A stretch of 64,000 bases of DNA from Acidimicrobiales bacterium (GTDB lineage: Bacteria; Actinomycetota; Acidimicrobiia; Acidimicrobiales; SZUA-35), in contig JBFGLT010000001.1 of assembly GCA_041576015.1 (NCBI GenBank), positions 5,918-69,917 on the forward strand. The letters are read 5' to 3'. Within the stretch, counting starts at the first letter, position 1; each line of letters opens with the position of its first letter. Under the pieces are notes generated by a model. That model was given only the letters and a program-made list of their open reading frames with translations. It ran no database searches and was not told the DNA's origin. Position numbers and translations under genes: made by a program. Shown one piece after another: positions 1,112 through 53,841 of this stretch.

Positions 1112-1645
1112 TCAGCCGAGGCGGGAAATCACCGTCGCAACGAGCTGATCGATCTCGTCGACGGCCCGCTCGTAGGCCTTCAGTCGCTTCTTGTACGGGT
1201 CGGCGACATCGAAGCGGGATTCAGAGAGATACTGGTGGGGATCGCGGCTGGCGTTGATCCGCTCAAGGAACGATTCGATCGTCTCGTCGGCCCTGATGAT
1301 CCCGGCCGCCTCTTTCAACGGAAGGGTCTTGCGAAGAGCGCGACGGTCGACGACCGTGGCGTCGAGAACGTGCCGCGCCTCCATGGTCAAGATGATGTCG
1401 GCAGCGGTGAGGCTGTCGCGGTCCACGGTGTAGCTGCGGTGGTCGGCGACGGAGATCCCCCGGCTCGCCAGCACCTTCTGGAGATCGTCGGGACACGGGC
1501 GGTCGCCGGAGAGAAATCCGGCCGACCTGAAGTGAAAACGCTCGGCACCGAACTGGTGGCGGGCCAGATACTCAGCGGACGGGCTGCGGCAGATGTTGGC
1601 AGTGCACACGAACAGCACCCGCCGACGCCGCGGTGTGGAATCCAT
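1112..1645 (-). CDS. Low-molecular-weight protein-tyrosine phosphatase
   Basis: Internal ATG at 1645 of ORF 1112..2011 gives 177 aa. VLFVCTANICRSPSAEY is the CX5R(S/T) P-loop and DVADPY is the Asp loop. The upstream 120 aa of the ORF are Arg/Pro-rich junk. Confidence 0.85.
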   Translation of the reverse strand: MDSTPRRRRVLFVCTANICRSPSAEYLARHQFGAERFHFRSAGFLSGDRPCPDDLQKVLASRGISVADHRSYTVDRDSLTAADIILTMEARHVLDATVVDRRALRKTLPLKEAAGIIRADETIESFLERINASRDPHQYLSESRFDVADPYKKRLKAYERAVDEIDQLVATVISRLG

Positions 1646-1665: not shown

Positions 1666-2373
1666 TCAGGCACCGGTGCGCCGGACGAGCGCCCCGAAGG
1701 TCCTGAACAGGATTCTCAGATCCGTCGCCAGCGACAGATTGATGACATAGGCCATGTCGAGGTGGAGACCCTCGGACAGGACCGCCTTGCTCCGCAGCCC
1801 CGACGTCTGGAACAACCCGGTCAGACCGGGGCGGACGAGGTGGCGGGGATGGTCGAGAATGCCGTCGTTCTTGGCGATGTAGTACAACTCGGGACGGGGT
1901 CCGACCAGGCTCATCTCGCCGCGGAGGACGTTGATGAGCTGAGGGAGTTCGTCGATGCTGACGCTCCGAAGGAAGCGCCCGAACCGGGTGTGACGGGGAT
2001 CGCTCGAGCACTTGTGCGTCTTGCGGCGGTCCTCGCCGTCGAAGCGGATCGCGCTCGATCGCCGGTCGGGATGCATCGTCCGGAACTTGAACATCTTGAA
2101 CTGACGGCCGTTCTGGCCGACTCGATCCTGGGACAGGACGACGTCCCTGCCGAGCGTCAGCCGGAGCCCGAGCCAGGTGAGAGCGAGCACGGGCGAGAGG
2201 AGCGCGAGCGCGCTGCCGGCGATCAGGACGTCGAGGGCGCGCTTGACGAAGCGCTCGTAGAAGCTGCGTCGGCGCTCCACCCAGCCGATGTCGAGCACCG
2301 ACGATGCCGCGCCGGGGTCCTCGGTTGGTGCCGATCGGGAGAGTTCTCGATCTAGTGGGTGTCGCGCCGTCAT
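1666..2373 (-). CDS. Polyprenyl-phosphate sugar phosphotransferase (bacterial sugar transferase family, small WbaP/EpsL type); priming enzyme
   Basis: One N-terminal TM segment (LDVLIAGSALALLSPVLALTWL). Motifs FKFRTM, DELPQLINVLRGEMSLVGPRPE and RPGLTGLFQ. ATG at 2373 is preceded by GAGG; an alternative start lies at 2430. Confidence 0.85.
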   Translation of the reverse strand: MTARHPLDRELSRSAPTEDPGAASSVLDIGWVERRRSFYERFVKRALDVLIAGSALALLSPVLALTWLGLRLTLGRDVVLSQDRVGQNGRQFKMFKFRTMHPDRRSSAIRFDGEDRRKTHKCSSDPRHTRFGRFLRSVSIDELPQLINVLRGEMSLVGPRPELYYIAKNDGILDHPRHLVRPGLTGLFQTSGLRSKAVLSEGLHLDMAYVINLSLATDLRILFRTFGALVRRTGA

Positions 2374-2489
2374 ATTCGCCTCATACCGCTCTTTCACGGG
2401 TAATCCGAGAGTTGTAACCGAAGGTAGCAACCACGTGCCGTGGTGGGAATGAACAAGGCAAGAATCGGGAACGTCTGCCCATCATCGCC

Positions 2490-3449
2490 ATGGGTCGGCA
2501 CCCCATGAGCCATGGGGACCAGTACCTTCGAGACGTGCGATCGATTGCTGTCATCCTCACCTGCTTCAACCGGCGCGAGACGACGCTGACCTGCCTCGAT
2601 CATCTGGTCAACCAGACGGGGCTCGAGACCGAACCTCCTGGTCAGGGACCCGAGCCGGAGGCCGAGCTCCACGTGTTCCTCGTCGACGACGGGAGCACCG
2701 ACGGCACCGGAGAGGCGGTCGGATCGGCCCATCCCGAGGTCGAGATCATCCCCGGCACGGGCGACCTCTTCTGGAATCGTGGCATGCACCGTGCGTGGCA
2801 GGTCGCCATCGAGCACGGTGGATTCGACCACTACTTCTTGTTGAACGACGACACGTTCTTGTTCCCGGATGCGCTCATCGCGCTGATCGCCGCCGCCGAA
2901 CACCCCGAGGACGGCTCGACCGGCCCGGGGATCGCCGTCGGCGCGACGACCGATCCGCGCACCGGTGCGCTCAACTACGGCGGCTACGTCCGCTCCTCGA
3001 AGTGGAATCCGATGAAGCTCGAGCACCGACCTCTCGGTGACCGGACCAGGGTCGTGACGATGAACTGCAACGCCGTGTTGGTCCCGGGCGACATCGTCGA
3101 CCAGATCGGCCAGATGGATCCGTTCTACCATCACAGCTGGGGCGACATCGATCTCGGCTACCGGGCCAGTCGGGCGGGAATCGTTCTCTCGGTCCCGGAC
3201 CGCCCGGTCGGTCACTGCGAATCGAATCCCCACGGGACCGACGCCTACCGCGACCCGTCGATGGGCCTGCGGGAGCGCATCCGTCAGATCAACTCGATCC
3301 ACGGCCTGAACAAGGCGGATTGGTATCACCTCGTCCGCCGGCACGGGGGCCCGGTGTGGCCGGCGGTCTGGGCGTCTCCCTACATCAATCTGGTGGTCAC
3401 GTGGGCTCGACAACGGCTGCCCGGCTCCGGGCGTGCCGCCGGAGAATGA
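2490..3449 (+). CDS. Family-2 glycosyltransferase
   Basis: IAVILTCFNRRETTLTCLDHL, FLVDDGSTDGT and LLNDDTFL are GT2 motifs. Divergent from the priming transferase. Confidence 0.8.
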   Translation: MGRHPMSHGDQYLRDVRSIAVILTCFNRRETTLTCLDHLVNQTGLETEPPGQGPEPEAELHVFLVDDGSTDGTGEAVGSAHPEVEIIPGTGDLFWNRGMHRAWQVAIEHGGFDHYFLLNDDTFLFPDALIALIAAAEHPEDGSTGPGIAVGATTDPRTGALNYGGYVRSSKWNPMKLEHRPLGDRTRVVTMNCNAVLVPGDIVDQIGQMDPFYHHSWGDIDLGYRASRAGIVLSVPDRPVGHCESNPHGTDAYRDPSMGLRERIRQINSIHGLNKADWYHLVRRHGGPVWPAVWASPYINLVVTWARQRLPGSGRAAGE

Positions 3450-4770
3450 TCTCGCGACCGTCCAGCGTCGATCGGTTCCGATCCATGAACCGCTTGGTCT
3501 CCACGAACGCCACCACCAGCAACATCCAGTCGATGCCCCGTTGCACGACGCCGTGCTCGGTGACCGAGTAGAGCGCAGCGTAGGAGATCATGGCGATCGG
3601 GAAGAGCCCGGCCAGTCCCGGCCGGTCCCGGAGGTAGTGAATCGACCGCCACAGCCCTCGTCCCATGACGATGAGCCAGATGACGAGCCCTACCGCCCCG
3701 ATGTTGAGCAGGTATTCGAGGGCGGCGTTGTGGGCGGTCGGCGGAAACCAGTCGTTCTCGAGCCAGATCTCGTGGGCCGGCGATCCCCAGCCCCCCCAGA
3801 ACGCGTCCCAGCCGTACCCGAGAAACGGGCGCTCGGAGATCGGCACGAGGAGATGGCGCCACAGGATGGTCCGACCGGTCAGCGTTATGTCTCGGCCGAG
3901 CAGGTCCGTGATGAACACGAGGTTGGCGGTCGCGACGAGGATTCCGAACAACCCGGCGGTCACCTCGCTCACGAGCACGGCGCCGAACAGCTGCTTGCGG
4001 GCCCGAAACGTCGTGAACACGATCAGCAACCCGCCAAGCAACACCAGCGACACCAGCGAGGTCTTGGAGTTGGTGCCCAGGACCAACCCGATCGAGCCGA
4101 CCAACCCGATCGACGCGAGGATCCGATGGTGCCGTGACCGGATGGCAAAGACCATGATCAGCGCACCGAGTACCGCTTGCTTGCCGAGCGAGTTGCGGTT
4201 GGTGGTGATGCCCAACCAGTTGGCGCCCGTCGGGGACACCCCGTACCGGGGAAGCGCGAAGATCCACAGGTAGTTCAGGATCATCGAGACGAAGAAGACG
4301 ATGGCGAGGCGGTTGAGGAGCTGCTCCAGGCTGTAGCGGGCGACGAAATAGATCCCGATCAGCACCACCATGAAGAGGGCGACCGCTCTTCGCAGTGTCG
4401 TGTTGAAGTCGACCGACCAGAGCGGGGAGAACAGGATCAATGCGGCGAACGCCATCAGCGCCATGTCGCAGACGATCAGGTAGAACATCGCCTTCGGGCG
4501 CTTCAGTGAGAAGGCCAGCAACGACACGGTCAGTCCGAGGAAGACGGCGATCACGAGAGAACCGCCGGAGTCGACGTACTGCCCTGTCCCGCCCTCGAGC
4601 ACGACGAACCACTCGGTCGGGAGCCCGGCGGTGAGAAACAGCAGGGTGAGCATCCCCACGGCCTGTTCGGCCAGTCGAGGGCGGGCCCGGTAGGCCGGGC
4701 TCAGACGCCACTGCGCCCGCTGCTCGGCCAGCAACTGGGCCGGCGACGGCGTGACGGCGGTCAGCGCCAT
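3397..4770 (-). CDS. O-antigen ligase / Wzy-like polytopic membrane protein
   Basis: 457 aa with about 10-12 hydrophobic segments and a larger loop (GRTILWRHLLVPISERPFLGYGWDAFW), typical of the Wzy_C/O-antigen ligase family. Its start lies 3 nt downstream of the Wzz/kinase stop. Confidence 0.75.
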   Translation of the reverse strand: MALTAVTPSPAQLLAEQRAQWRLSPAYRARPRLAEQAVGMLTLLFLTAGLPTEWFVVLEGGTGQYVDSGGSLVIAVFLGLTVSLLAFSLKRPKAMFYLIVCDMALMAFAALILFSPLWSVDFNTTLRRAVALFMVVLIGIYFVARYSLEQLLNRLAIVFFVSMILNYLWIFALPRYGVSPTGANWLGITTNRNSLGKQAVLGALIMVFAIRSRHHRILASIGLVGSIGLVLGTNSKTSLVSLVLLGGLLIVFTTFRARKQLFGAVLVSEVTAGLFGILVATANLVFITDLLGRDITLTGRTILWRHLLVPISERPFLGYGWDAFWGGWGSPAHEIWLENDWFPPTAHNAALEYLLNIGAVGLVIWLIVMGRGLWRSIHYLRDRPGLAGLFPIAMISYAALYSVTEHGVVQRGIDWMLLVVAFVETKRFMDRNRSTLDGREIILRRHARSRAAVVEPT

Positions 4771-4773
4771 CGG

Positions 4774-6414
4774 TTAGGACTGGCCGGTGTCGTAGTACGA
4801 GTACGTGTCCCGGCGGGAGAAGAACCCCCGGCGGGCACGGGTGCGGTTGAGGACCGCTCCGACGATCGACGCACCCGCCCGTTCGAGTTCGTCCTTCACC
4901 TTGAGAAGGTCGGGCGTTTCGGTGCGGCGGCTGTCCACCACCAGCAGCACACCGTCGGCGTGGGTCGCGGCGGTCGCCGCATCGGCGGTGCTGAGGACCG
5001 GCGGGCTGTCGATGAGGACATAGGACGCCATGGTCCGGAGCTCTTTGATCAGCGTCTCGAACTGCAGGGAACCGAGCAGCTCGCCGGGGTTGGCGGGCGG
5101 AGGACCGGCCGGGACGAACCAGAGGTTGTCGACGCCCTCGACTGTCTTGAGCTCCATCTCGGTCTTCCCACCGAGGAAATCCGAGAGCCCTTCGTCGTTG
5201 GGAACGCCGAGAATCCGTTCGAGGGTCGGGCGGCGCATGTCGGCAGAGACGAGGGCGACGTGCTTTCCGCTCTGGGCGAGGGCCAGAGCCAGGTTGGCCG
5301 AGGCGACCGACTTGCCTTCGCCGGGGAAGGCGCTCGTGAAGAGGAAGACCTCTGCCCCGGTGGAGGCCGATGTGAACTGAACGCTCGATCGGAGCCGCCG
5401 GAACGCCTCCCGGCAGATCCCCAGTCGCGGTTTGCGGTCCTGGCTGAGCATGATCGCCGCCGACGTCCCGCTGCGACTCCCCAGCGGGAAGGCCGGAACC
5501 GAGGCCATGACCCGGGCGCCCACGGCCAGTGAGACGTCGGCCTCGTCGCGGGCGGTGGTGTCGAGGCGCTCGATGAGGAACGCAGCGGCCGTGCCGAACA
5601 ACAACCCGGCGATCGCCGCTCCCGCCAGAATGATGGCACGGGGGATGCCGTCGGGCGACCCGGGCACGGCTGCCGACAGAAGCACCCGGCCGGCCGGCTG
5701 GAGGGCGTTGCGCTCCAGCCGCAGCTCGTTGAGGTCGGTGTTGGCGACCCGAATCGCCTGGGCCCAGGCATTGACCTCGGTCCGCAACACGCTGACCTGT
5801 CCGCTGATCTGACCCTCCTCGATGTCGGTCAGGTTGACGCCGTTCGTGGAGGCGACGAGGGCGGCGATCTGTTCTTCGAGGCTCTGTTGGATGGCGACGG
5901 CTTCGGCGATCTGGGTCTCCAGCACGGCGATTCGTTCGTCGTAGTAGGCCTCGGCCTCGGTCCGGCGATCGTCGACGTAGACCTCGGCGAACGCATTGAC
6001 GACGTCGGCTGCGAACTCGCGGTCCGTACTGGTGTACGACAAGTCCAGTCGCTGGCTGTCGGGGATGAAGGAGATCTTGATCCGGCGCTGGAGTTGGGCG
6101 GCGGTGACCTCGTACCCCTGCCGGCGGAGAAGGCTCGCCACATCGGCGGAGATCTCGTCGCTGCGAAGCACGGAGCGCTCCAGCTCGAGGTTCGCCTCCG
6201 CCGGCGTGCCCCGGGTGCTGTTCACCGGGCTGAGGCCCACCTGGATCTCACCCTCGGCGGTGTAGGAGGCGACGCGCCCGGACGTGGCCACGAAGGCGAC
6301 GGCGAAGATCAGCAGCGTGGTCGCCACGACGGTCCACTTGCGATTCCGGATCGCGGCGAGGTAGTCCTCGAGCGTCGTGACATCGTCTTGCACGAAGTTG
6401 TTGTCTGGAACCAT
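4774..6414 (-). CDS. Polysaccharide co-polymerase (Wzz-like) fused to a BY-type tyrosine autokinase
   Basis: N-terminal TM, coiled periplasmic-type domain, then a second TM. The C-terminal P-loop has SAFPGEGKS (Walker A), VLIDSPP (A') and LLVVDSRRT (B). The C-terminal Tyr cluster is DTYSYYD. ATG at 6414 is preceded by GAGAG; the track uses TTG at 6441. Confidence 0.85.
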   Translation of the reverse strand: MVPDNNFVQDDVTTLEDYLAAIRNRKWTVVATTLLIFAVAFVATSGRVASYTAEGEIQVGLSPVNSTRGTPAEANLELERSVLRSDEISADVASLLRRQGYEVTAAQLQRRIKISFIPDSQRLDLSYTSTDREFAADVVNAFAEVYVDDRRTEAEAYYDERIAVLETQIAEAVAIQQSLEEQIAALVASTNGVNLTDIEEGQISGQVSVLRTEVNAWAQAIRVANTDLNELRLERNALQPAGRVLLSAAVPGSPDGIPRAIILAGAAIAGLLFGTAAAFLIERLDTTARDEADVSLAVGARVMASVPAFPLGSRSGTSAAIMLSQDRKPRLGICREAFRRLRSSVQFTSASTGAEVFLFTSAFPGEGKSVASANLALALAQSGKHVALVSADMRRPTLERILGVPNDEGLSDFLGGKTEMELKTVEGVDNLWFVPAGPPPANPGELLGSLQFETLIKELRTMASYVLIDSPPVLSTADAATAATHADGVLLVVDSRRTETPDLLKVKDELERAGASIVGAVLNRTRARRGFFSRRDTYSYYDTGQS

Positions 6415-6482
6415 GGCCGCACTCTCAGTCGTAGGACTCAACGGGCCAGGTTACTGGCACCGGGGCCAGAACGACTGAGCAG

Positions 6483-8618
6483 TCATCCCACCCTTCGAGT
6501 AGGCCGATAGTAGGACCAGAGTAGGGCCAGTGCGGCAGCGCCCGCCGCCGGGAGCTCGGGCGGAACCGGCGCCTGGGGGATCGATTGATCGTCGAACGCC
6601 AGCGTGCGAGGAACCTCGGCGGGTTGGTCGCCGCCCGTTTCGGCGAGCTCGGACGGCTCGTCGTCCTCGACGGGTGCCGGCGGAACCGGCCCGGCGATCT
6701 CGTCGGCCGTGGCTCGCTGGGCTGGGGCGCCCAAGGCTCCGGAGCCGTCGAGCTCGATGACGGAGCCTTCGCCGCCATCCACGCCCGGCGGACGGAACTG
6801 AACGGTCGTCGACCGACCAGTGGTGGTAGCGGTCGGGCCGGTGGCCGCCGCCGGCGAGACCTCGCCGATCTCGGCTCCTGCCAAGTCCGCATCCGACGCG
6901 GTTGTCACACGCGATGCGGTCGGCTCAGTCGACGAGGTCGAGGTCGGGCCGGCGGCGGTGGTCGACGAGCTCGTGGTGGCGGGGGACGTCGTCGTCGAGG
7001 ACTCCGTTGTCGGTGGCCGAGCCACGGCGGTGGAGGCGGTCCCGGGAGGAACGGTCGTCGCCACCGTGGAGGGTGACGTGTCCGTCGGTTCGGTCACGCT
7101 CGACGGGGCGGTCGTCGGCGGCGGAGTGGTGGGCGAAGATGCGGTCGTCGCAGTCGTCGGTGCAGCGGTCGTCGTCGGGGGCGGCGCCGTCGTGGTCGTC
7201 GTCGCGGGAGCTGTGCTCGAGGATTCGAGCGCCCCCTGATCGATGCCCGAGCCGGCGACCCGGGCCCGGCCGATCAGGTCGGCACCGAGCACTCCGTTGA
7301 AGCTGGCGATTCCACCGTCGACCGCCGGTGAACCGGCCTGGAGCTGGAAGTTCGACGGGTTCGGATTGGTGGACGGGGAGGCGAGGACCGCCGTGCCCGG
7401 TGCCACCCGCTGGTCCCCGCTCGACTGGGCGCCGTTGTATTCGGGGGCGGTGTCAGCCACGTACAGGTTGTTCGAGAACCGGACGTTCGACGCATCGTAG
7501 GTTCGGGCCGGCTTGAGCCCGTTGCGCGAGTACACGATGTTGTTGGCGAAGTGCACGTCGTCGGAGTAGAAGGCGCCCAGCTCACCGCCCGAGCTGGCGA
7601 TCTCGGACGTGCGCAGGTTCTGATAGATCGTGTTGTTCACGACATCGACGTGCCGCGACTCATAGATCTGTACTCCCCGTCCGCCGTTGTCGAGACACAG
7701 GTTGTTGGCGATCAGCGTTCTCCCCGAGTAGCCGTTGATCTTGGTGCGGTCCATGATGATGCAGTTGCCGTCGGTGAACCGACCGTTCCGATCCCGTATC
7801 TTGTTCTCGACCCGGTACACGATGTTGCCGGTGATGTAGTTGGAGTATCCGTTGGCGTCGTTGCCGAATCCCATGTTGAAACTCTCGAGGATCGAGATGC
7901 CCGAGTGCTGAGTGGGCTCGACCTCGGCGACATCGAACACCACGTTGTTGCGGATCTCGACGTGGCTGGAGCCGGTCACCGGGATGCCGCCGGCCCCGAA
8001 CCCCGAGATCCGGTTGTTCAAAACGCGGACATGGTGGTTCTTCGCCGGACCGTAGATCGCATCCACGTTGATTCCTGCGCCGGAGTAGCTGGACGTCCCG
8101 CCGGTCGGGTTGCCGATGAGTTCGAGGTTCGAGATCTCGACGTAGCTGGCTCCCTCCACCTTGATGCCGTTGCTCTGGTTGCTCTTGAGCACGGGCGTCG
8201 CCCCGGGGAACGCTGTGATCTTGATCCAGGCGTTCGGCTGGCCGGAACGGTTGACGACGACGGCGGAGTCGGAGCGTTCCGACTCGAAGAACTCCCCCTC
8301 CATCACATACAGGGTGTCGCCCGGATTGAGCTGCTTGACGGCGTACGCCACGGTGCGATATGGCTGGTCGGGGCTGTCGCCGCTGTTGGCGTTGTCGCCA
8401 CCGGGCGACACGTATTTCCCCGGCAGGGCGACTCCTGCGCCCCGCACCTCGGGGTCCTGCTCCGAGAGGTCGGTCGATGAAACACAACCAGACGCGACGA
8501 GGACGACCACGACGACCAGGGCGAGGCGGAGGGTGCCCAGGAAGCCTCGACGATCAAGCGCGGTTCGTGCGGCGGGGACGCGAGCGTCCCCACCCGTACG
8601 GCGGACGGTCTGGGGCAT
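6483..8618 (-). CDS. Secreted right-handed parallel beta-helix repeat protein (pectate-lyase-fold, putative glycan-modifying/depolymerising enzyme) with Thr/Pro-rich linker and C-terminal anchor-like tail
   Basis: The N-terminus DRRGFLGTLRLALVVVVVLVASGC reads as a Tat motif plus lipobox. Repeated NNxIxxxxxxGI units are present (NNRISGFGAGGIPVTGSSHVEIRNNVVFD, NNLCLDNGGRGVQIYESRHVDVVNNTIY). A T/P/S/A-rich stretch of about 130 aa follows. The C-terminus is VPPELPAAGAAALALLWSYYRPTRRVG. Confidence 0.75.
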   Translation of the reverse strand: MPQTVRRTGGDARVPAARTALDRRGFLGTLRLALVVVVVLVASGCVSSTDLSEQDPEVRGAGVALPGKYVSPGGDNANSGDSPDQPYRTVAYAVKQLNPGDTLYVMEGEFFESERSDSAVVVNRSGQPNAWIKITAFPGATPVLKSNQSNGIKVEGASYVEISNLELIGNPTGGTSSYSGAGINVDAIYGPAKNHHVRVLNNRISGFGAGGIPVTGSSHVEIRNNVVFDVAEVEPTQHSGISILESFNMGFGNDANGYSNYITGNIVYRVENKIRDRNGRFTDGNCIIMDRTKINGYSGRTLIANNLCLDNGGRGVQIYESRHVDVVNNTIYQNLRTSEIASSGGELGAFYSDDVHFANNIVYSRNGLKPARTYDASNVRFSNNLYVADTAPEYNGAQSSGDQRVAPGTAVLASPSTNPNPSNFQLQAGSPAVDGGIASFNGVLGADLIGRARVAGSGIDQGALESSSTAPATTTTTAPPPTTTAAPTTATTASSPTTPPPTTAPSSVTEPTDTSPSTVATTVPPGTASTAVARPPTTESSTTTSPATTSSSTTAAGPTSTSSTEPTASRVTTASDADLAGAEIGEVSPAAATGPTATTTGRSTTVQFRPPGVDGGEGSVIELDGSGALGAPAQRATADEIAGPVPPAPVEDDEPSELAETGGDQPAEVPRTLAFDDQSIPQAPVPPELPAAGAAALALLWSYYRPTRRVG

Positions 8619-8748
8619 ATCGGTTCATCGGCACGATCGGAATCGGGTTGAGCCCTAATTGGGCACGCCCACGTCGCCCCGACGGCCCGCACGCGCGACC
8701 GCTGGTCCGATGTCCCTGGTGGGAGCGTTCCCGACCGGGCCGGGCCCG

Positions 8749-10008
8749 ATGAACGAATTTTCGCCGCGACCTGTCCGCGCCCTCCTGGTCTGCCATTCGT
8801 GTTCACCGGCAGGTGGATCCGAGGCGCGCATGAGCTGGCGGTGGGTCACCCATCTGGCCAAGGCCGGCGTCCAGATCACCGCCCTGATCAACCGGGCCGA
8901 CCCGACGGCGACGATCGATCCCCGGACCGCGCTACTCCCGCCGGGGATTCCCGACGGCTGCGCACCGGTCTTCGTCGACGTCGCCCCACCGATCTGGTCG
9001 CGACGGTTGCCGATCGTCGCCTATACGGCGCTGGACTATCAGGGCTGGCAACGACGAGCTCTTGCCGAGGCACGATCGCGACACGCCGAGGAACCCGTCG
9101 ACATCGTGCACCACCTGTCGTGGGCGAGCGTGCACCACGGCACACAGCTCGTGCGGTTGGGCGCACCGTTCATACTCGGGCCGGTGGGGGGCGGCACGAC
9201 CAGCGCCGAGGGCTACCGCGACTGCTTCGAGGACAGCTGGCGATACGAACGATTGCGCAACCTTCTCGTCCGGTCGATCGCATGGAATCCCATGGCCCGC
9301 CGGCTCGTCCGGGGGTCGGCGCTCCTCGTCGCGTCGAATCCGGAGACCAAGGTCCTTTTGGAGCGGCTCGGCTCCGAGGAGGTCGAACTGATGCTCGATG
9401 ATGGCGTCGATCCCGACGAACTCCGCACCGAGCCGGTTCAGCAGTCGGCGTCCGGACCGCTCCGCATCCTCTGGGTGGGCCGCATCATGGAACGCAAGGC
9501 CCTGGGCATGGCGCTCGAGGCTGTCGCCCGGGCGGCCCAGACGACCCCGGTCACGATGACGGTCATCGGCGACGGCGAGCACCGGTTCGTCGTCGCCGAC
9601 CGGCTGGCCGAACTCGGCGCCGAAGGCGTCATCGACGACCGTGGCTGGGTCGACCAGGCGGCGGTCGACGATGCGTACTCCCATCACGACGTGCTGCTGT
9701 TCAACAGCGTCCGTGACAACGGGAGTGCTCCGCTGCATGCGGCCTCGACCCATGGACTGCCGGCGGTCGTCATCGCTCATCAGGGGCCCGGGGCCATCAC
9801 CTCCGAAGACTGGGCTGTCCGTGTGCCACCGTCGACCACTTCGGAGACCATCGACGAGCTGGCCAGAGCTCTGGTCGAGCTGGCCGGTGATCGCGACCGC
9901 CGCACGTCGATGGGGTGGGCAGCCCTCGAGGCTGCGAAACGCAACACCTGGCCCGAGCGCGCCGCCACGATGGTCCGCTGGTACCGCGAGGTGATCGAGC
10001 GGACCTGA
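8749..10008 (+). CDS. GT4-family (group 1) glycosyltransferase
   Basis: GT-B fold features: ALLVCHSCSPAGGSEARMSW, ILWVGRIMERKA, and a C-terminal E-x7-E-like region. The start is uncertain (ATG at 8749, 8710 or 8659). Confidence 0.7.
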   Translation: MNEFSPRPVRALLVCHSCSPAGGSEARMSWRWVTHLAKAGVQITALINRADPTATIDPRTALLPPGIPDGCAPVFVDVAPPIWSRRLPIVAYTALDYQGWQRRALAEARSRHAEEPVDIVHHLSWASVHHGTQLVRLGAPFILGPVGGGTTSAEGYRDCFEDSWRYERLRNLLVRSIAWNPMARRLVRGSALLVASNPETKVLLERLGSEEVELMLDDGVDPDELRTEPVQQSASGPLRILWVGRIMERKALGMALEAVARAAQTTPVTMTVIGDGEHRFVVADRLAELGAEGVIDDRGWVDQAAVDDAYSHHDVLLFNSVRDNGSAPLHAASTHGLPAVVIAHQGPGAITSEDWAVRVPPSTTSETIDELARALVELAGDRDRRTSMGWAALEAAKRNTWPERAATMVRWYREVIERT

Positions 10009-24728: not shown

Positions 24729-26021
24729 TCACAGTTTGACCACGTTCGGACCGGTGACGGCGTTGCGGGTGTCGAAGACGACGGCGGCGTGATCGACGAC
24801 GATGGCCAAATCCAGGTCGCAGTGGTCGACGAGCAGCACGACCACATCCGCTGCAGCAACCACCGAGGCGGTGAGATCGACCGGCTCGACCGAGTCGCAG
24901 AAGTTGGCCGGGTCGACCCAGGAGTCGTGACACCACACGGTGGCGCCGAGCTCGGCCAGCTTCTCGGCGATCGGTCGCACGGGCGTCTGACGGTCATCGC
25001 CTGTGTTGGGCTTGTAGGCGTAGCCGAGGAGCAGCAGTGTCGAGCCCCGCACCGGCCGGCTCCGGTCGTTGAGGAGGCGGGTGATCCGCTGGACCACGTG
25101 ATCGGGCATGTGGTCGTTCACATCGTTGGCCAGCTCGACGAACCGGAACCGGTGACCCAGGGACCGCTGCACTCTCCAGCTGAGAAAGCTGGGATCGATG
25201 GGAAGGCAGTGTCCTCCCACGCCCGGTCCGGGGGTGAATCGCATGAATCCGAAGGGCTTGGTGTCGGCGGCGTCGATCGCCGCCCAGATGTCGATGTCGA
25301 GCTCGGCTGCGAAGATCGCCAACTCGTTGACCAGGGCGATGTTGACGTGGCGGAACGTGTTCTCCAACAGCTTGGAGAGCTCGGCTGCGCGCGGTGAGGC
25401 CACCGGAACGACCTCGGACACGAGATCTGCGTAGAAGGCACCGATTCGGTCGAGTGCTTCGGGTGTGGTACCAGAGACGACCTTCGGAGTGTTGTCGAGC
25501 CGGTACACCGTGTTGCCCGGATCGATCCGCTCCGGGCTGTATCCGACCAGGAAATCGGCGCCGGCCCGGAGACCGCCCGATCCGGCCTCGAGCAACGGGA
25601 CGAGGAATTCCTCGGTGGTCCCCGGATAGGTCGTGGACTCCAGCACGACCGTGCACCCCGGTCTGAGAAACGGCGCCAGCTGGCGGCCGGCCGCCTCGAT
25701 GTGACCGAGGTCGGGGACCCCGTCCCGAAGGGGTGTGGGAACGGTGAGGATGGCGAGGTCGAATCCGGCGATGTCGTCGACCTCGTGGGTCAGGGCGAAC
25801 CGCCCGCTCTCGAGGGCCATCGCCAGCCCGGCGTCGTCGACGTCTTCGATGAACGAAGTACCGGCCCGCAAGCGATCGACACGCTCGGAGTCGATGTCAT
25901 AGCCGACGACGTCGTAGCCGGCGACGACGGCCCGCACCGCCAGCGGGAGCCCGACGTACCCCTGGCCAACGACGAGCACCCGGGTGCTCTGGCGCTCACC
26001 GGTCCGTCTCTCCTGTCGCAC
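24729..26021 (-). CDS. Nucleotide-sugar dehydrogenase (UDP-glucose/GDP-mannose dehydrogenase family; WecC/Cap5O-like)
   Basis: RVLVVGQGYVGLPLAV (Rossmann), GGHCLPID (catalytic Cys) and LLLGYAYKPNTGD. The start is uncertain (GTG at 26021 or 25979). The track ORF to 26747 overlaps bpa in another frame. Confidence 0.85.
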   Translation of the reverse strand: MRQERRTGERQSTRVLVVGQGYVGLPLAVRAVVAGYDVVGYDIDSERVDRLRAGTSFIEDVDDAGLAMALESGRFALTHEVDDIAGFDLAILTVPTPLRDGVPDLGHIEAAGRQLAPFLRPGCTVVLESTTYPGTTEEFLVPLLEAGSGGLRAGADFLVGYSPERIDPGNTVYRLDNTPKVVSGTTPEALDRIGAFYADLVSEVVPVASPRAAELSKLLENTFRHVNIALVNELAIFAAELDIDIWAAIDAADTKPFGFMRFTPGPGVGGHCLPIDPSFLSWRVQRSLGHRFRFVELANDVNDHMPDHVVQRITRLLNDRSRPVRGSTLLLLGYAYKPNTGDDRQTPVRPIAEKLAELGATVWCHDSWVDPANFCDSVEPVDLTASVVAAADVVVLLVDHCDLDLAIVVDHAAVVFDTRNAVTGPNVVKL

Positions 26022-26068
26022 CGGCCCGGACCCGAACCCTGGTCCGTCTCCCACCAGACCGCCCAAAC

Positions 26069-26548
26069 TCAGAGATAGGTGCCGGTCTGCGGCGGCTGGG
26101 TGGACTGTGGGAGGGCCTGCTGGCGGTGCATTTGCTCGAGCTGTTGCCGGGCCGCCATCTGCTGGGCGAACAGCGTGGCCTGAATGCCGTGGAACAGACC
26201 TTCCAGCCAGCCCACGAGCTGCGCTTGGGCGATCCGCAGCTCGGAGTCGGAGGGGACGGCGTGATCCTCGAACGGGAGCGCCAGCGACTGCAACTCCTGG
26301 GCCAGGTCCGGGGAAAGGGCCTCGCTGAGCTCCCGGATCGAGGTCTCGTAGATATCGCGCAAGCGGTTGCGCCCGGCGTCGTCCATCGACGTGGCCCGAA
26401 CCTCCTCGAGCAGCTGTTTGATCATCGAGCCGATCCGCATCACCTTGGCCGGCTCTGAGATCGAGTTCCGCTCGACTGGCGCCTCCTCCTGTTCGCCCGA
26501 AGGCGCTTCGACGACGTCGGGTGTTTCGACAGGCGGCGGATCGCTCAT
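26069..26548 (-). CDS. bpa: Bacterial proteasome activator
   Basis: 159 aa. It has an acidic disordered N-terminus, a helical core (KVMRIGSMIKQLLEEVR ... LVGWLEGLFHGIQ) and a C-terminal tail ending PQTGTYL. The mycobacterial Bpa/PafE ends GQYL. Confidence 0.8.
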   Translation of the reverse strand: MSDPPPVETPDVVEAPSGEQEEAPVERNSISEPAKVMRIGSMIKQLLEEVRATSMDDAGRNRLRDIYETSIRELSEALSPDLAQELQSLALPFEDHAVPSDSELRIAQAQLVGWLEGLFHGIQATLFAQQMAARQQLEQMHRQQALPQSTQPPQTGTYL

Positions 26549-26610
26549 GGGTGGGATCGTATCGGTCGCCTGGGACGGCGGCGCACCGACTGTGCCGGGT
26601 TCGGGAAGGC

Positions 26611-27717
26611 TCAGGCTTGGGCTCGCAGCAGCGGTACGAGCATCTCGGCCGGCGTGAGCGACCCGTGACGGCCGATGAGCTCGAAGGGTCCGCTGTCGGC
26701 GGGATCGAAGAAGGCCACCGGTTCGAACGGGCAGAGGGCAACATCACCGAGGCGGTCTTCGACGCCGGCTCGCAGCACCGGACCGAACCACTGCTCGTCG
26801 AGGATCTGCTGTCGGCTGCGGACCCAGGCCACGTCGCCGTACCGACGTTCGGCCTCGGCGGTCAAGTCGTCCACGGCGCCCGGTTCGCAGTGCAACCACC
26901 GGAATCGACCTTCGCCGCTCAGCCCGGTCACCAGGGACTCGATGTCGGGGTGGAGATGGATCACGTGATCGTCGCAGTCCACCTGACCGTGGTCGGCGGT
27001 CACGACGACCTCGGTTCCCGACGGGACCGCGTCGAGGATCTCGGCAACCAGGCGATCGGCGAAGGCGACCTCGGCGTCGAAGACCGAACCGAAGCCGTAT
27101 TCGTGGGACACCTTGTCGACTCCGTCGTAGTAGGCGTACACGAACTCCTCGCCCTCGCGAAGCAGGCGGGCGACCTCGTGGACGAGCGTGGCCGTCGTCC
27201 GGTACCCGACCAGGCGAGCGCCGCGCAGGTGCGCCAAGCTGAATCCCGACCGCCGGAAGTCGGCCTTCGACACGAGCGGCACCTCGCATCCCTGAAACGG
27301 CGCATAGGGCTGGAGGACGTCGGGCGGAATCTGACGGCGAGCGTCGAGGGTCTCGGCGGTGGCCCAACGCAAGGTGTTGAGCACCTCGTCGTCCACCACC
27401 ATGCGGTACCCGACGATCCCGTGCTCGCCCGGTGTCAGGCTGGTGGTGATCGACGTCAGCGCCGTCGCCGTGGTCGATGGGACAACCGTCGTGATGGCGC
27501 CACCGTGCATGCGGTGCAGGGTGGGCGCATGGTGCTGACGATCCTGGAGTTGTTCCCAGCCCAAGCCGTCGAGGATCATCAGCACCCGTTGGGGACTGTT
27601 GCCGATCTCGACCGGAAGGTGCCCGGTCCCGCGCCCTCCGGGCAGTAGGTAGGAAAGGATGTCGACGACACATCCCGACCCGTAGGCCGGCACGATGAGC
27701 GGGGGTTCAGAGGACAC
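26611..27717 (-). CDS. Alkaline-phosphatase-superfamily enzyme (type I phosphodiesterase/nucleotide pyrophosphatase-like)
   Basis: VLMILDGLGWEQL (metal-binding Asp), VVPSTTATALTSI (nucleophile region) and VVTADHGQVD. The start is uncertain (GTG at 27717 or 27693, no clear SD). The longer ORF would run through the divergent Rrf2 gene. Confidence 0.75.
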   Translation of the reverse strand: MSSEPPLIVPAYGSGCVVDILSYLLPGGRGTGHLPVEIGNSPQRVLMILDGLGWEQLQDRQHHAPTLHRMHGGAITTVVPSTTATALTSITTSLTPGEHGIVGYRMVVDDEVLNTLRWATAETLDARRQIPPDVLQPYAPFQGCEVPLVSKADFRRSGFSLAHLRGARLVGYRTTATLVHEVARLLREGEEFVYAYYDGVDKVSHEYGFGSVFDAEVAFADRLVAEILDAVPSGTEVVVTADHGQVDCDDHVIHLHPDIESLVTGLSGEGRFRWLHCEPGAVDDLTAEAERRYGDVAWVRSRQQILDEQWFGPVLRAGVEDRLGDVALCPFEPVAFFDPADSGPFELIGRHGSLTPAEMLVPLLRAQA

Positions 27718-30046: not shown

Positions 30047-30917
30047 ACTCGAGCCACCGGCCGTCTCGAGGGTGCTGGAATCCCAGCCGGCCGGCATGGA
30101 GGAACACCCGAGGGCAGCCCGCCACCACCGGATGGCCGGTGCGCACGGCGCCGTAGCGGTCGTCCCCGACCAGGGGATGACCGATGGCGTCGGCGTGAAC
30201 GCGGATCTGGTGGGTCCGCCCCGTCTCGAGACGAATCCGGAGCAGGGCGACATCTGCGTCCTCGAATCGCTCCTCGACGGTGTAGAAGGTCCGGGCTTCC
30301 TTGCCCCCGGCCCGCACAGCTTGTCGAGTCGGGTGACGCAGTGACCGCCCGATCGGCGCATCGATCAGCCCTTCCTGGGCGGCTGGGAGACCATGCACAA
30401 GTGCGAGATAAGTCCGAGCCACCTGACGGTCACGGAGCTGCTCGCTCAACGCCCGGTGGGCCACATGCGAGCGGGCGGCCATCAACAGCCCGGAAGTCCC
30501 CTTGTCCAGCCGGTGCACGATGCCGGGACGATCCCGCTCTCCGATGCCGGCGATCTCCGGGAAACGGGCCAGCAAGCCCTGGACGACGGTCCCATTATCG
30601 ACCCCGGAGCCCGGGTGGACGATCTGACCGGCCGCCTTGTCGATCACGACGACGTCGGCGTCGGCGTACCGGATGTCGAGGTCGACCGACGGATCTCCAG
30701 CGAGCGCAGCCGGACGGTCGCCGGCCGGTAGTTGTATCCACTGACCGGGCTCGACGCGCAGGGAAGGTTTGTGCACGGTGGCGCCGTCGATGGCCACCCG
30801 CCCCTCGGCAATCAGGTCGACGGCGCGCGCCCGGCTGACCTCCAGGACCATCGCCACCACCCTGTCGATACGTTCTCCGGCGAGTGCACCGGAGACCTCG
30901 ATGGGCTGATCGGTCAT
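29988..30917 (-). CDS. rluD: RluA-family 23S rRNA pseudouridine synthase (RluD-like)
   Basis: ATG at 30917 overlaps the lspA stop (ATGA). S4 domain (RIDRVVAMVLEVSRARAVDLIAEGRVAIDG), catalytic HRLDKGTSGLLM, and GRTHQIRVH. Confidence 0.9.
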   Translation of the reverse strand: MTDQPIEVSGALAGERIDRVVAMVLEVSRARAVDLIAEGRVAIDGATVHKPSLRVEPGQWIQLPAGDRPAALAGDPSVDLDIRYADADVVVIDKAAGQIVHPGSGVDNGTVVQGLLARFPEIAGIGERDRPGIVHRLDKGTSGLLMAARSHVAHRALSEQLRDRQVARTYLALVHGLPAAQEGLIDAPIGRSLRHPTRQAVRAGGKEARTFYTVEERFEDADVALLRIRLETGRTHQIRVHADAIGHPLVGDDRYGAVRTGHPVVAGCPRVFLHAGRLGFQHPRDGRWLEFTSDLPPDLASILSALRST

Positions 30918-31477
30918 CGCCGCCGGGCTGGCGACGGGGTGGAACGGAACGACAGAATCACTGCGGCGATCACCGACAGGACGATCGCCGAGTCGGCCAC
31001 GTTGAACACCGGCCACCATTGGAGATCGATGAAATCGATCACTTCGCCCGAGAGCGGTCCGTCCTCGGCGCGAAGGACCCGATCGATGCCGTTCCCGAGA
31101 GCGCCGCCGACGATGCATGCGTACACAACTCGGTGGGCGGTGTCGCTGGTCCGACTTCCCACCCAGGTGAGGAGGACGGCCATGCACAGGGACAGCACGC
31201 CGATCAGCGGACCGAGCGACTCGGCGGTACCGAACGAGGCACCGGAGTTGAACACCAGGTTCAACCGGAGCGTCCAGATCACGTCGATGCACGCATCCGG
31301 TTCCGAGCAGGCGCCGGGCTCGAGCGCGCGCAGAACCCACCACTTGGTCAGCTGGTCGAGGGCGACGATGGCGCCGGCGATCGCCACCACCTGCGCCAGC
31401 CAGTGCCTCGTGAAACCGGTGTGTGCCTCGGTTACCGGCGAGCGTTGTCGAACATCGAGGTCTTGTGGTCTACGCAC
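30914..31477 (-). CDS. lspA: Lipoprotein signal peptidase (signal peptidase II)
   Basis: DQLTKWWV, NSGASFG and FNVADSAIV (catalytic Asp motifs) with 4 TM segments. The ATG at 31477 overlaps the upstream gene by 46 nt, so the start is uncertain. Confidence 0.85.
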   Translation of the reverse strand: MRRPQDLDVRQRSPVTEAHTGFTRHWLAQVVAIAGAIVALDQLTKWWVLRALEPGACSEPDACIDVIWTLRLNLVFNSGASFGTAESLGPLIGVLSLCMAVLLTWVGSRTSDTAHRVVYACIVGGALGNGIDRVLRAEDGPLSGEVIDFIDLQWWPVFNVADSAIVLSVIAAVILSFRSTPSPARRR

Positions 31478-32250
31478 CGTTCGCTTTCCGGCCGGGCCTC
31501 CAGCCGGGCCTTGGGTATGGCCACGTTATCGACATAGCAGAAGCCGTAGGTCCCGGCATCGATTCGGGCCAGGGCAGCGTCGATGGTCTCGATGTGTTCG
31601 AGGCGGCCCTTCCGCTCGGCGACGAGTTCGGAGATCTGGACGTTGATGCTCGTGCCCTCGCTGGACTCGTCGCTGGAGGTGTCGTCGCCGGCTTCGGCGG
31701 TCTCGAGAAGCTCGTCGAGCTGGGCGGCGAACTCGGCCACCTGCTCGCTGAGCTCGGCGCGCTCGTCTTCGAGCTGGCCGCGTCGCGCCGACAGCCACTT
31801 GCTGTCCTTGAGGTAAGCCGGCTTGACTCCGGCATTCTTCGGAGCGGCCGGTGCGGGCCGTTTCTTGCGCGCTGTCGCTGACCGGGTCGTGGCGGCCGAC
31901 TTCTTCGCCGTGCGTCGGCGGCTGGGAGCCTTGGCGGCCTTCTTCTTGGTAGTGGTTGTGCGGATCACCCTGTCCGCCGATGCCGCCCTCTTCTTGGCGC
32001 CGGCCGCCTTCTTCGCCGCTGACTTGCTGGCAGTCTTCTTGGCGCCGGCCGCCTTCTTGGCCGCCACGGTCTTCGTCGCCGGCGCTCGTTTCCTGCTCAC
32101 GGCCTTCTTGGTTCCAGTCGCCCGTTTCGTGGCCGGCGTCTTCTTCGTCGCCCGCTTCGTCGACGCTCCGCGGGCTGCCGTCTTTTTGGTGGCCGGCTTT
32201 CTGGCCGTCGATTTCTTCGTCGATTTCTTCGTCGATTTCTTCGTGGTCAC
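31432..32250 (-). CDS. DksA/TraR-like protein with N-terminal Lys/Ala/Thr-rich histone-H1-like tail
   Basis: The N-terminal ~150 aa are K/A/T/R-rich (TKKSTKKSTKKS, KKAAGAKK x2). A coiled-coil follows (LSARRGQLEDERAELSEQVAEFAAQLDELL) with an acidic loop. The C-terminus GTYGFCYVDNVAIPKARLEARPESERCVDHK is a degenerate TraR/DksA zinc-finger position. GTG start at 32250. Confidence 0.75.
   Translation of the reverse strand: MTTKKSTKKSTKKSTARKPATKKTAARGASTKRATKKTPATKRATGTKKAVSRKRAPATKTVAAKKAAGAKKTASKSAAKKAAGAKKRAASADRVIRTTTTKKKAAKAPSRRRTAKKSAATTRSATARKKRPAPAAPKNAGVKPAYLKDSKWLSARRGQLEDERAELSEQVAEFAAQLDELLETAEAGDDTSSDESSEGTSINVQISELVAERKGRLEHIETIDAALARIDAGTYGFCYVDNVAIPKARLEARPESERCVDHKTSMFDNARR
32209..32244 (-). 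repeat. Perfect 12-nt tandem repeat x3 inside the DksA-like gene
   Basis: CGATTTCTTCGT x3 on the plus strand, encoding (T/S)KKS repeats. Confidence 0.95.
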
Positions 32251-35540: not shown

Positions 35541-35576
35541 GCTGGTTCGCCGGCTACCGGCGGCGTCCGAACCAGC
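35541..35576. terminator. Hairpin at the ileS/divIVA convergent junction
   Basis: GCTGGTTCG ... CGAACCAGC: a 9-bp stem with an 18-nt loop that contains a CCGG-CTA-CCGG sub-hairpin. It starts 6 nt after the ileS stop and overlaps the last codons of the divIVA-like gene. There is no U-tract. Confidence 0.3.
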
Positions 35577-37413: not shown

Positions 37414-37493
37414 GGCTCAAGCCTAGTGCCTCCGCCGGCGCCGGTCGGGTTGGATTGCCCACGATCTGAGCGCCCGGTGAACCGCCGCGACGG

Positions 37494-37757
37494 TCAGATC
37501 GAACAGACGATCTGCACCACGATCGCCAGGATCAAGAACATCGCCAGCTCGGCGACACCGAAGCCGGCCATCGCTCCGGGAAGCGGCGGCAGTGCGCGGC
37601 GCAACGGAAGCAGAGCCGGTTCGGTGACACTGAAGGCCATCTCGCGTACCTGCATCATCGGCCCGCCGGTGCGGGCGGGGAACCAGGACAGCGCGATGCG
37701 AACGAAGAAAGCGAACTGGAACGCCAATACGGCGAAACACAAGATGTCGGCAACCAT
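37494..37757 (-). CDS. yggT: YggT-family membrane protein
   Basis: 87 aa with two TM segments; IALSWFP and EPALLPLRR motifs. Canonical position between sepF and divIVA. Confidence 0.85.
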   Translation of the reverse strand: MVADILCFAVLAFQFAFFVRIALSWFPARTGGPMMQVREMAFSVTEPALLPLRRALPPLPGAMAGFGVAELAMFLILAIVVQIVCSI

Positions 37758-38512: not shown

Positions 38513-38658
38513 CGACGATCCTTTCGAAGAGGCAACGGCTGTCCATCACCGTAGCCTCTTCCCGCCCCCGAAAGGCGCACATGCACGTTGGAGCGTGGCT
38601 GAATCATCCGGAGCGTGGCCGAAGCGACCGACCGGCACCGACCCCTCGTGCCGTCCGG

Positions 38659-40063: not shown

Positions 40064-40085
40064 GCGACGCCGGCCGGTGCAGGAT

Positions 40086-41243: not shown

Positions 41244-41351
41244 TCCGATGCCGATCCTTGTTTGCTGGGTGCTGGGCGGCTCACAGGGTGTAACGCTAGT
41301 GCGTACGACCGCGTTTCGCGGTGCTGGGCCCGGATGGACAGCCCGTAGAGA

Positions 41352-48385: not shown

Positions 48386-48392
48386 GGCAGGT

Positions 48393-49790: not shown

Positions 49791-49793
49791 TCC

Positions 49794-53112: not shown

Positions 53113-53147
53113 GAAAACGTGCCGGTGTCACCCAAGCTCCGGTTCGG

Positions 53148-53270: not shown

Positions 53271-53347
53271 ACGAACGCCTTCCTAGGCTCTACCGAACTC
53301 CTTTCCTGATCGTTGCCGCCTGAGGGTCGAGAGGTGGGTCGGCATGC

Positions 53348-53773: not shown

Positions 53774-53841
53774 CGTGCACCTCGCCTCCCCCGAGTCCTC
53801 TCGATGTGGTTCCGACTGCCACGCCAGACCCCGCATCTGCG

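Follow-up and report, generated by a model that had tools for sequence, protein, structure and literature searches.

A candidate surface-tethered beta-helix polysaccharide enzyme with a family-specific C-terminal module, encoded next to the Wzz/BY-kinase and Wzy genes of an Acidimicrobiales bacterium

Introduction

The WcaM protein, encoded in the colanic-acid cluster of E. coli and Salmonella, is a predicted beta-helix protein. WcaM is listed as a substrate of the twin-arginine translocation (Tat) pathway (PMC8262268), and RbmB, which is encoded in an extracellular polysaccharide (EPS) locus of Vibrio cholerae, is a beta-helix polysaccharide lyase whose structure is available (PDB 9ozl; PMC11637428, PMC12993940). 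In ErLnb136, a member of glycoside hydrolase family 136 (GH136), D568 serves as the acid/base and D575 as the nucleophile (PMC7335108). Little is understood about extracellular chain trimming, release and length control in the Wzy-dependent polysaccharide pathways of Gram-positive and actinobacterial lineages. Here, we analyzed a stretch of 64,000 nucleotides from an Acidimicrobiales bacterium (assembly GCA_041576015.1, contig JBFGLT010000001.1, positions 5,918 to 69,917), hereafter the window, and focused on one of its genes (6483..8618, minus strand), which encodes a beta-helix protein of 711 amino acids and lies directly upstream of a gene for a Wzz/BY-kinase in a Wzy-dependent polysaccharide locus.

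The protein is composed of a lipobox signal peptide, a right-handed beta-helix, a choice-of-anchor-Q cap, a disordered linker of about 215 residues and a C-terminal module of 40 residues. Our preferred interpretation, to which we give a slightly better than even chance, is that it is a polysaccharide enzyme tethered to the cell surface, and that its tail is a family-specific anchor or docking helix at the machine formed by Wzy and the polysaccharide co-polymerase (PCP). In the following, we characterize the conserved gene cassette and the C-terminal extension that co-occurs with it, examine whether the tail can be a sorting signal, as had been proposed in a first-pass annotation of the window, and compare the protein with described systems.

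Results and Discussion

The open reading frame (ORF) at 6483-8618 is a real gene. Its GC content at third codon positions (GC3) was 0.84, like that of the flanking genes, and a protein search returned 74 homologues, the best of which was near-identical (E = 0) and the next ones had E-values of 1e-252 to 1e-217. The few named sources among these homologues were Acidimicrobiales or Actinomycetota metagenome-assembled genomes (MAGs), with the products annotated as 'hypothetical' or 'parallel beta-helix repeat'. The ATG start is supported by the orthologues, which keep an MPxxVRRxG N-terminus. Antisense ORFs overlapping the gene (e.g., 6425-6892 and 7551-8480) were rejected as artefacts of high GC content on account of the GC3 and deep homology of the sense frame.

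The cassette in which this gene resides is conserved. All seven homologues that possess both the linker and a hydrophobic tail (the window protein, L001/P0006, L003/P0005, L004/P0010, L125/P0025, L051 and L058) are encoded in the order beta-helix protein, PCP/BY-kinase and Wzy_C protein. In the window, the Wzz/BY-kinase gene (4774..6441, minus strand), coding for a PCP with tyrosine autokinase (TIGR01007, 150.6 bits with a cutoff of 108), lies 41 bp downstream of the beta-helix gene on the same strand and is followed by the gene for a Wzy_C family membrane protein, a putative polymerase (3397..4773, minus strand). The adjacency to the Wzz/BY-kinase gene that had been recognized in the first-pass annotation is thus a conserved property of the cassette. 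A divergently oriented gene for a GT1-family glycosyltransferase (8659..10008, plus strand, in the window) lies upstream of the cassette in all loci that cover this region, which the short L051 does not reach. Genes for a polyprenyl-phosphate sugar phosphotransferase (Bac_transf; 1666..2481, minus strand, in the window) and a low-molecular-weight protein tyrosine phosphatase (LMW-PTP), the partner of the BY-kinase (1115..1645, minus strand; tblastn, 69% identity to the L001 LMWPc gene), come after Wzy_C in the four loci that are long enough, and also in the window, where they stand behind an inserted GT2 glycosyltransferase gene.

A different context was found for the three tail-less paralogues of about 480 amino acids that were examined (P0021, P0012 and P0023), which end directly after the choice-of-anchor-Q cap. 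The genes of all three adjoin an S9 peptidase gene and, in the two loci that reach far enough, also a phosphoenolpyruvate carboxykinase gene, and no polysaccharide genes were found near any of the three. P0021 and the tail-bearing P0006 are encoded on the same 2.05-Mb contig, indicating that one genome possesses both forms. This split in synteny suggests that the C-terminal extension is a clade-specific acquisition that accompanied recruitment to the PCP-Wzy cassette, and the linkage between extension and cassette favors a tethering or docking role at the PCP-Wzy machine.

The catalytic domain (residues 68-419; 7362..8417, minus strand) is a right-handed parallel beta-helix. It matched the Pfam family Beta_helix (PF13229) at 1.5e-10 (41.4 bits with a cutoff of 25.9); a Pfam-A scan of the window protein gave this and NosD matches only, and precomputed matches to PF22842 (Pel9A-like_beta_helix) are present on all close homologues. 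The Asn-ladder motifs NNRI, NNVV, GNIV, NNTI and NNIV occur in the domain. An AlphaFold2 (AF2) model of residues 46-469, built from a 57-sequence alignment, was a right-handed beta-helix with a mean predicted local distance difference test (pLDDT) score of 93.2 and a predicted template modeling (pTM) score of 0.92. The helix is closed by a C-terminal cap (residues 420-470; 7209..7361, minus strand), residues 422-466 of which match the choice-of-anchor Q domain (NF041518, 30 bits with a cutoff of 25). A Foldseek search against the PDB gave 77 matches at E<=1e-3, and the best 50 of the 77 were nearly all beta-helix carbohydrate-active enzymes (CAZymes) or phage tailspikes. GH136 lacto-N-biosidases ranked first (6e-13), followed by Pel9A of polysaccharide lyase family 9 (PL9; 1.5e-9, TM-score 0.50-0.53), and the lower matches included a PL9 rhamnogalacturonan lyase, the epimerases AlgE4/AlgE6, PL6 lyases and the Vibrio VPS lyase RbmB. 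When a sequence profile of the family was searched against the PDB, GH136 (8.5e-18) and PL9 (1.2e-12) were found. The beta-helix carbohydrate-enzyme fold with NNxI/V-type repeats, read from the letters alone in the first-pass annotation, was thus confirmed by PF13229, the AF2 model and Foldseek, and the fold prediction suggested there as a check places the domain nearest GH136 and PL9.

Three residues of the domain, D283 and D290 (7749-7772, minus strand) and R314 (7677-7679, minus strand), were invariant in 39/39 aligned homologues, including the tail-less clade, and lie in the motifs TDGN....D and NGGRG. The D283-x6-D290 spacing is that of the acid/base and nucleophile of GH136, a possible equivalence in a region without sequence alignment to GH136. 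A search of the PDB with a sub-alignment of the catalytic coils, intended to map the GH136 and PL9 residues, produced only weak matches to AlgE4/AlgE6 repeats. R314, which is placed one coil after the Asp pair, would suit the base of a lyase. A nucleotide-sugar dehydrogenase and a WecG/TagA-family transferase are among the products of the locus; it is thus plausible that the polymer contains a uronic acid, and a lyase mechanism is possible. Reasoning from other locus-encoded enzymes, RbmB among them, we take the protein to be a putative glycanase or lyase acting on the polymer of its own locus.

The C-terminal extension begins with a Thr/Pro/Ser/Ala-rich low-complexity linker (residues 471-600; 6819..7208, minus strand; T 34%, A 18%, P 16% and S 15%), which was unalignable between orthologues, and continues with a Gly/Pro/Asp/Glu-rich disordered spacer (residues 601-671; 6606..6818, minus strand). 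In the full-length AF2 model, residues 472-686 were disordered (pLDDT <50), and a 13-residue helix (residues 691-703; 6510-6548, minus strand; assigned with DSSP) was predicted at moderate confidence within the conserved C-terminal module (residues 672-711; 6486..6605, minus strand). Both the linker of about 130 residues and the three-part layout of the tail, which had been noted in the first pass, were therefore recovered, the former being predicted to be disordered. The last 27 residues, VPPELPAAGAAALALLWSYYRPTRRVG, consist of VPPELPAAG with the Pro/Glu motif, the hydrophobic segment AAALALLWSYY and the basic end RPTRRVG.

The module reads LAFDD..Q.P.PPELP, short helix and YYRPTRRVG in the window protein, and the 40-residue consensus of the orthologues is xLAFDDxPIPQAPxPxE[ILV]PLAG...LL.SYYRP(T/R)....LG. 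The alignment is gap-free and contains 11 invariant positions among 10 aligned orthologues, demonstrating that the tail is not a chance sequence. Its carriers are P0002-P0006, P0022, the fragments P0075-77 and the MAG loci L051 and L058, about 12 together with the window protein, and the catalytic domains of the close ones are 75-79% identical. Charged residues around the tail helix are acidic before it and net-basic after it, a layout that fits a predicted N-out, C-in stop-transfer orientation. The more distant P0010 (63% identical in the catalytic domain) keeps the linker and a hydrophobic C-terminus and has lost the Glu, ending in SPVWPLSGVFLTSLFGAWQCTRPSRFVDLR, while in P0025/26 (about 48% identical) the linker and a hydrophobic C-terminus are kept and the motif is gone, the ends being GLWIALSLVFLASGFGAMQMTNSVAQRRD. 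Over a longer distance, what is conserved is therefore 'linker plus hydrophobic C-terminus' and not a recognition motif. The tail evolves fastest, with 43-75% identity as compared with 75-79% in the catalytic domain and 68-73% in the neighboring PCP and Wzy proteins. As a separate observation, the close orthologues P0007 (594 aa) and P0008 (559 aa) have Arg/Pro/Ser-rich, unrelated-looking C-termini instead of the linker and tail; these are likely frameshift or assembly errors in repetitive T/P-coding MAG DNA and not real variants.

In the first-pass annotation, the layout of the tail had been likened to that of protein-sorting signals of the PEP-CTERM/exosortase or LPXTG/sortase type. This assignment was not supported. 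A search of the last 30 and the last 60 residues against NCBIfam at E<=10 gave no PEP-CTERM, GlyGly-CTERM or other sorting-signal model, and the conserved motif is PxE[ILV]P. The sole NCBIfam match in the tail region was the LAETG model NF041528, with 11.8 bits (cutoff 30) over a 7-residue motif only. This LAETG (residues 658-662, in the spacer) was rejected as a sortase-E motif because 28 residues separate it from the helix downstream, none of the orthologues has it and its score is below threshold.

The distribution of the tail was examined by an exhaustive HMMER search of 1.84 billion representative proteins with a 59-position tail profile. Five of the eight matches at E<=1e-3 were orthologues or their C-terminal fragments, P0079 and P0080 were unrelated repeat proteins, and P0078 is presumed to be likewise, judging from its 19 short matched stretches. 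The tail was thus found on no other protein family in these representatives, for copies above about 35 bits. A hidden Markov model (HMM) of the 24-residue tail core scores 32-47 bits on true members, and about 35 bits correspond to E = 1e-3 in the exhaustive search, so a well-conserved copy on another family should have been detected. Six-frame translation of the window and of 206 kb of related Acidimicrobiales DNA revealed no second copy of the tail. When the degenerate pattern PxExP-8-L-3-YxRP was run over genome contigs, 118 of the 120 matches listed were chance occurrences without a hydrophobic core and the two real ones, L051 and L058, were both orthologues; a scan of this kind cannot exclude other tail-bearing families.

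Sorting enzymes were likewise sought. The statement in the first-pass annotation that the window has no sortase or exosortase gene was upheld, since no such Pfam family was present in the approximately 40 window ORFs scanned, and the Pfam assignments precomputed for the genes of L001, L003, L004 and L125 included none either (sortase, PF04203, or exosortase). According to that annotation, if no other protein shared the tail and no cognate enzyme existed, the tail would be a plain transmembrane (TM) anchor. The first half of this is largely what was found, as far as the 1.84 billion representatives, the 206 kb of related DNA, the window and the four loci extend; the second half fits less well, because a hydrophobic stretch of about 13-15 residues makes a poor 19-residue TM segment. 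The best reading of the sequence data is that the tail serves as a family-specific anchor, as opposed to a known type of sorting signal (PEP-CTERM, LPXTG or another) cut by a sortase-like enzyme. For annotation practice, this is a warning that not every C-terminus with a Pro/Glu motif, a hydrophobic stretch and Arg residues is a signal for a sortase or exosortase.

A dedicated sorting signal of an undescribed kind is a separate proposal, which we consider unlikely. PxE[ILV]P would be recognized by a membrane enzyme encoded elsewhere in the genome, which would remove or exchange the helix and YYRP and leave the beta-helix enzyme attached by its T/P-rich stalk to the wall, the polymer or a lipid. 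Such Thr/Pro-rich stalks right before the anchor are typical of sortase and archaeosortase substrates, and the choice-of-anchor Q family, in a domain of which our catalytic domain ends (NF041518), is named for members with differing C-terminal anchors. The abutment of the Pro/Glu motif on the helix and the invariance of P15, E17, P19, Y32 and P35 of the module beyond what hydrophobicity needs are in line with recognition, a helix whose short length and weak TM propensity would hardly suit a permanent TM anchor is in line with removal, and the structural neighbor with the top TM-score, Rhombotarget A, is named as a rhombosortase target. These points must be set against the lack of any NCBIfam sorting-signal match, the single carrier family among the 1.84 billion representatives and the lack of a candidate enzyme in the window or the gene listings of the four loci. 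Moreover, P0010 and P0025/26 have lost the motif, including its Glu, despite having the same cassette and architecture, the basic cluster of orthologues is weak (e.g., RPRWTEQELG, which is net neutral), and the tail is less conserved than the catalytic domain, PCP or Wzy.

The other end of the protein bears the export signal. Its N-terminus, MPQTVRRTGGDARVPAARTALDRRGFLGTLRLALVVVVVLVASGC, is a signal peptide with an h-region (residues 1-44; 8487..8618, minus strand), and a PROSITE-style lipobox (VASG followed by C) ends at Cys45 (8484-8486, minus strand). The lipobox Cys is present in 23/28 closest homologues, the other five being truncated, mis-started or off the regular expression at one position; homologues that deviate from it by one residue still keep the Cys. 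The window contains lspA, the gene for signal peptidase II (30914..31525, minus strand, outside the polysaccharide locus), indicating that the organism processes lipoproteins. The lipoprotein-type signal is well supported, and lipidation probably occurs at Cys45, about 22 residues ahead of the catalytic domain. The lipobox part of the Tat-lipoprotein signal proposed in the first-pass annotation thus stood; its twin-arginine part (DRRGFLGTL, residues 22-30; 8529-8555, minus strand) is present, but it scored below threshold in the Tat model TIGR01409 (14.2 bits with a cutoff of 16.7) and is not conserved. RRGFLGTL arises within an insertion of about 17 residues, GDARVPAARTALDRRGF, that is absent from the closest orthologues P0002-P0007, in which MPxxVRRxG leads directly into the h-region of ordinary 28-residue lipoprotein signals. 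The Tat-like insertion may reflect a recent change of export route or mere drift of the n-region.

These features can be assembled into a model of the tethered enzyme. The protein would be exported via its lipoprotein signal peptide and receive a lipid on Cys45, and its beta-helix most likely works on the heteropolysaccharide of its own Wzy-dependent locus, by trimming, cleavage or release. The cassette clade would have gained the C-terminal extension, i.e., the disordered linker of about 215 residues, rich in T/P/S/A and then acidic, followed by the 40-residue helix module. For the tail helix, stop-transfer anchoring or docking is the most likely role, and would keep the C-terminal end at the cytoplasmic membrane beside the Wzz/BY-kinase and Wzy encoded directly downstream.

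Several observations weigh against this model. We summed the Hessa 2005 scale over the best 19-residue window, a crude calculation as compared with a trained predictor, and obtained +9.3 kcal/mol for the tail of the window protein and +4.4 to +8.2 kcal/mol for those of close orthologues, while the two TM helices of the PCP scored about 0 and the signal h-region +0.7 kcal/mol. This weak score and the apolar stretch of about 13-15 residues make a stable lone TM helix doubtful; the tail helix may need a membrane partner or may span no membrane. The invariant LAF, Q, P, E, P, Y and P (and R in 9/10) exceed the needs of a generic anchor and would also be compatible with their being recognized by a partner or a processing enzyme. 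Anchoring at two ends with a loop of 215 residues between them has no obvious mechanical rationale. The searches for a sorting enzyme and for diverged tails extended no further than the window, related loci and, for the tail, the representative proteins. Finally, a hydrolase, a lyase and an epimerase are all compatible with the data.

Some of the same observations would suit a tail that is not inserted at all. In this alternative, which we rate as improbable, the N-terminal lipid would be the only membrane anchor, and the tail would be a docking peptide or helix on a flexible leash that either contacts Wzy or the Wzz/BY-kinase at an extracytoplasmic domain or regulates the beta-helix by folding back on it. 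The poor TM propensity of the tail, its specific invariant polar and aromatic positions, its strict co-occurrence with the PCP-Wzy cassette and the long disordered leash all speak for such docking. Nevertheless, the acidic residues before and basic residues after a fully apolar core of 11-13 residues resemble a stop-transfer segment, and the tail of P0025/26 is more hydrophobic over 15-19 residues (+1.5 kcal/mol over 19 and about 0 over 15), which points to membrane anchoring as what has been conserved. In the full-length AF2 model, the linker was disordered and the tail block reached a pLDDT of only about 76, with about 10 tail-bearing sequences in the alignment.

A bolder form of the tethered-enzyme model treats LAFDD-PxE[ILV]P-helix-YYRP as a new lineage-specific targeting element by which, in a monoderm actinobacterium, a glycanase or lyase is coupled to the polymerization machine of Wzz/BY-kinase and Wzy, an idea for which we see only a small chance. 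As a single-substrate sorting signal or an intramembrane docking helix, such an element would provide for chain trimming or release at the site of polymerization; we hold this extension to be equally tentative.

The surroundings of the cassette are consistent with its proposed role. The window is bacterial chromosomal DNA of 65-70% GC, and positions 1-20 kb constitute a Wzy-dependent polysaccharide locus, in agreement with the setting given in the first-pass annotation. This locus contains genes for a GT2-GtrA protein, GT2, the low-molecular-weight tyrosine phosphatase, the polyprenyl-phosphate sugar transferase, Wzy_C and Wzz/BY-kinase; it also contains genes for GT1, a MOP flippase, GT2, GT4 and the WecG/TagA-family transferase, rmlC, and several NDP-sugar epimerase/dehydratase genes. 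The nucleotide-sugar dehydrogenase is encoded at about 24.7-26.9 kb (TIGR03026, 375 bits). The stop-to-stop ORF (24732-26861, minus strand) would give 710 residues, and domain matches begin only at residue ~294; the gene is probably shorter than the ORF, or a separate upstream gene lies in the same frame.

Additional copies of cassette-type genes were noticed in related loci. A second Wzy_C-family gene stands beside the LMW-PTP gene in L004 (16979-18352) and L125 (10569-11816), and one of the two copies could be a ligase or an O-oligosaccharyltransferase rather than a polymerase, a point of interest for whether the T/P-rich linker might be glycosylated. L001 (3761-5380), L003 (3203-4819) and L004 (1520-3178) encode another PCP/BY-kinase beyond the glycosyltransferase block, which has diverged to 27-32% identity with that of the cassette; the window yielded no counterpart.

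A Wzy_C domain is also found in O-oligosaccharyltransferases such as PglL and WsaB, whose acceptors are Ser/Thr residues of low-complexity regions rich in Ala, Pro and Ser. That the linker of our protein is an O-glycosylation acceptor to which the Wzy_C protein transfers the locus glycan, making the protein a glycoprotein carrier and not mainly an enzyme, is very improbable: the Wzy_C gene is always two genes downstream, a second one occurs in two loci, and the window flippase weakly matches an O-glycosylation Wzx model (35 bits with a cutoff of 720), but the only Wzy_C gene of the window is needed as the polymerase in a Wzy-dependent PCP pathway, the beta-helix has the invariant acidic/basic constellation that active enzymes typically show, and many enzymes secreted by actinobacteria have T/P-rich linkers.

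The rest of the window contains dnaE, lspA, ileS and the dcw cell-division cluster. The cluster (35554-53887, minus strand) appeared complete, with mraW, ftsI, a Mur ligase gene, mraY, murG, ftsZ, sepF and divIVA, plus an mraZ-like ORF judged from its position and the look of its sequence only. ileS, lspA and dnaE lie upstream of the cluster, and together with it they indicate a chromosomal context of the actinobacterial type.

With the tethered-enzyme model, the conserved cassette, in which a tethered beta-helix enzyme is encoded upstream of the co-polymerase/kinase and Wzy, would supply this machine with a specific candidate for a processing enzyme of its own. The tail-less paralogue elsewhere in the same genome is a natural control, and the tail is a testable targeting element. 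The practical impact is limited, since the hosts are uncultured Acidimicrobiales and the analysis is based on prediction.

Comparison with known systems

Among the known systems, RbmB is similar in that it is a secreted right-handed beta-helix enzyme encoded within the gene cluster of its own polysaccharide, and it was matched by Foldseek at an E-value of 7.8e-5. However, RbmB has a signal peptide only, without a lipobox, T/P linker or C-terminal anchor, the structural overlap is low (TM-score 0.34-0.46), and its host is a diderm of another phylum; moreover, the activity of the window protein is a prediction. WcaM similarly is an exported protein with a twin-arginine signal from a Wzy-dependent EPS cluster, but it is soluble in the periplasm and lacks the lipobox, linker and tail, and the Tat motif of the window protein is sub-threshold and not conserved. 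Membership in the WcaM family was ruled out, as no NCBIfam WcaM match was obtained at E<=1.

With regard to the tail, the likeness to PEP-CTERM and LPXTG proteins lies in the position at the extreme C-terminus, the Pro/Glu motif abutting a hydrophobic helix and followed by Arg, and the low-complexity stalk upstream; an EPS locus with a BY-kinase is a further likeness to PEP-CTERM proteins, as in XrtA systems. The differences are the motif PxE[ILV]P, the restriction to one carrier family, the lack of an HMM match and of a sorting enzyme nearby, the loss of the motif in distant cassette homologues and a host of actinobacterial, presumably monoderm, lineage. Rhombotarget A (9cdu/9cdv) had the top TM-score among the PDB matches listed (0.50-0.55, with a root-mean-square deviation of 5-6.5 A) and is a surface-located beta-helix protein, its name denoting a target of rhombosortase, a C-terminal sorting enzyme. 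It is nevertheless only about 14% identical (E about 1e-4) and gammaproteobacterial, and GlyGly-CTERM signals gave no match to the tail.

As for the enzyme itself, GH136 (LnbX, BsaX and ErLnb136; 5gqc, 7v6i and 6kqs) is the best match by both profile and Foldseek. The match covers the C-terminal cap motif D.xG..R...PD.GA.E, and the D-x6-D spacing is the same. On the other hand, the identity is about 15%, the central catalytic coils are without sequence alignment, the locus showed neither a GH136-I/LnbY chaperone domain nor a gene for one, and the context is EPS biosynthesis, not catabolism of human milk oligosaccharides or mucin. PL9 (Pel9A, 1ru4; 5olq) is linked to the family by PF22842 on the close homologues and by the Foldseek and profile matches, and the invariant Asp cluster and the basic residue one coil later could be a Ca2+ site and a base. 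Unlike in PL9, the invariant basic residue is R314 and not a Lys; the similarity is at the level of the fold and the N-terminal sequence, and the substrate of the window enzyme is certainly not pectin. We found no described counterpart that combines a lipobox, a conserved short C-terminal helix and strict linkage to BY-kinase and Wzy. The enzyme is therefore best placed as a new member of the beta-helix CAZyme superfamily, nearest GH136 and PL9, in a niche, the processing of a polysaccharide by an enzyme encoded in its own locus, that is already familiar.

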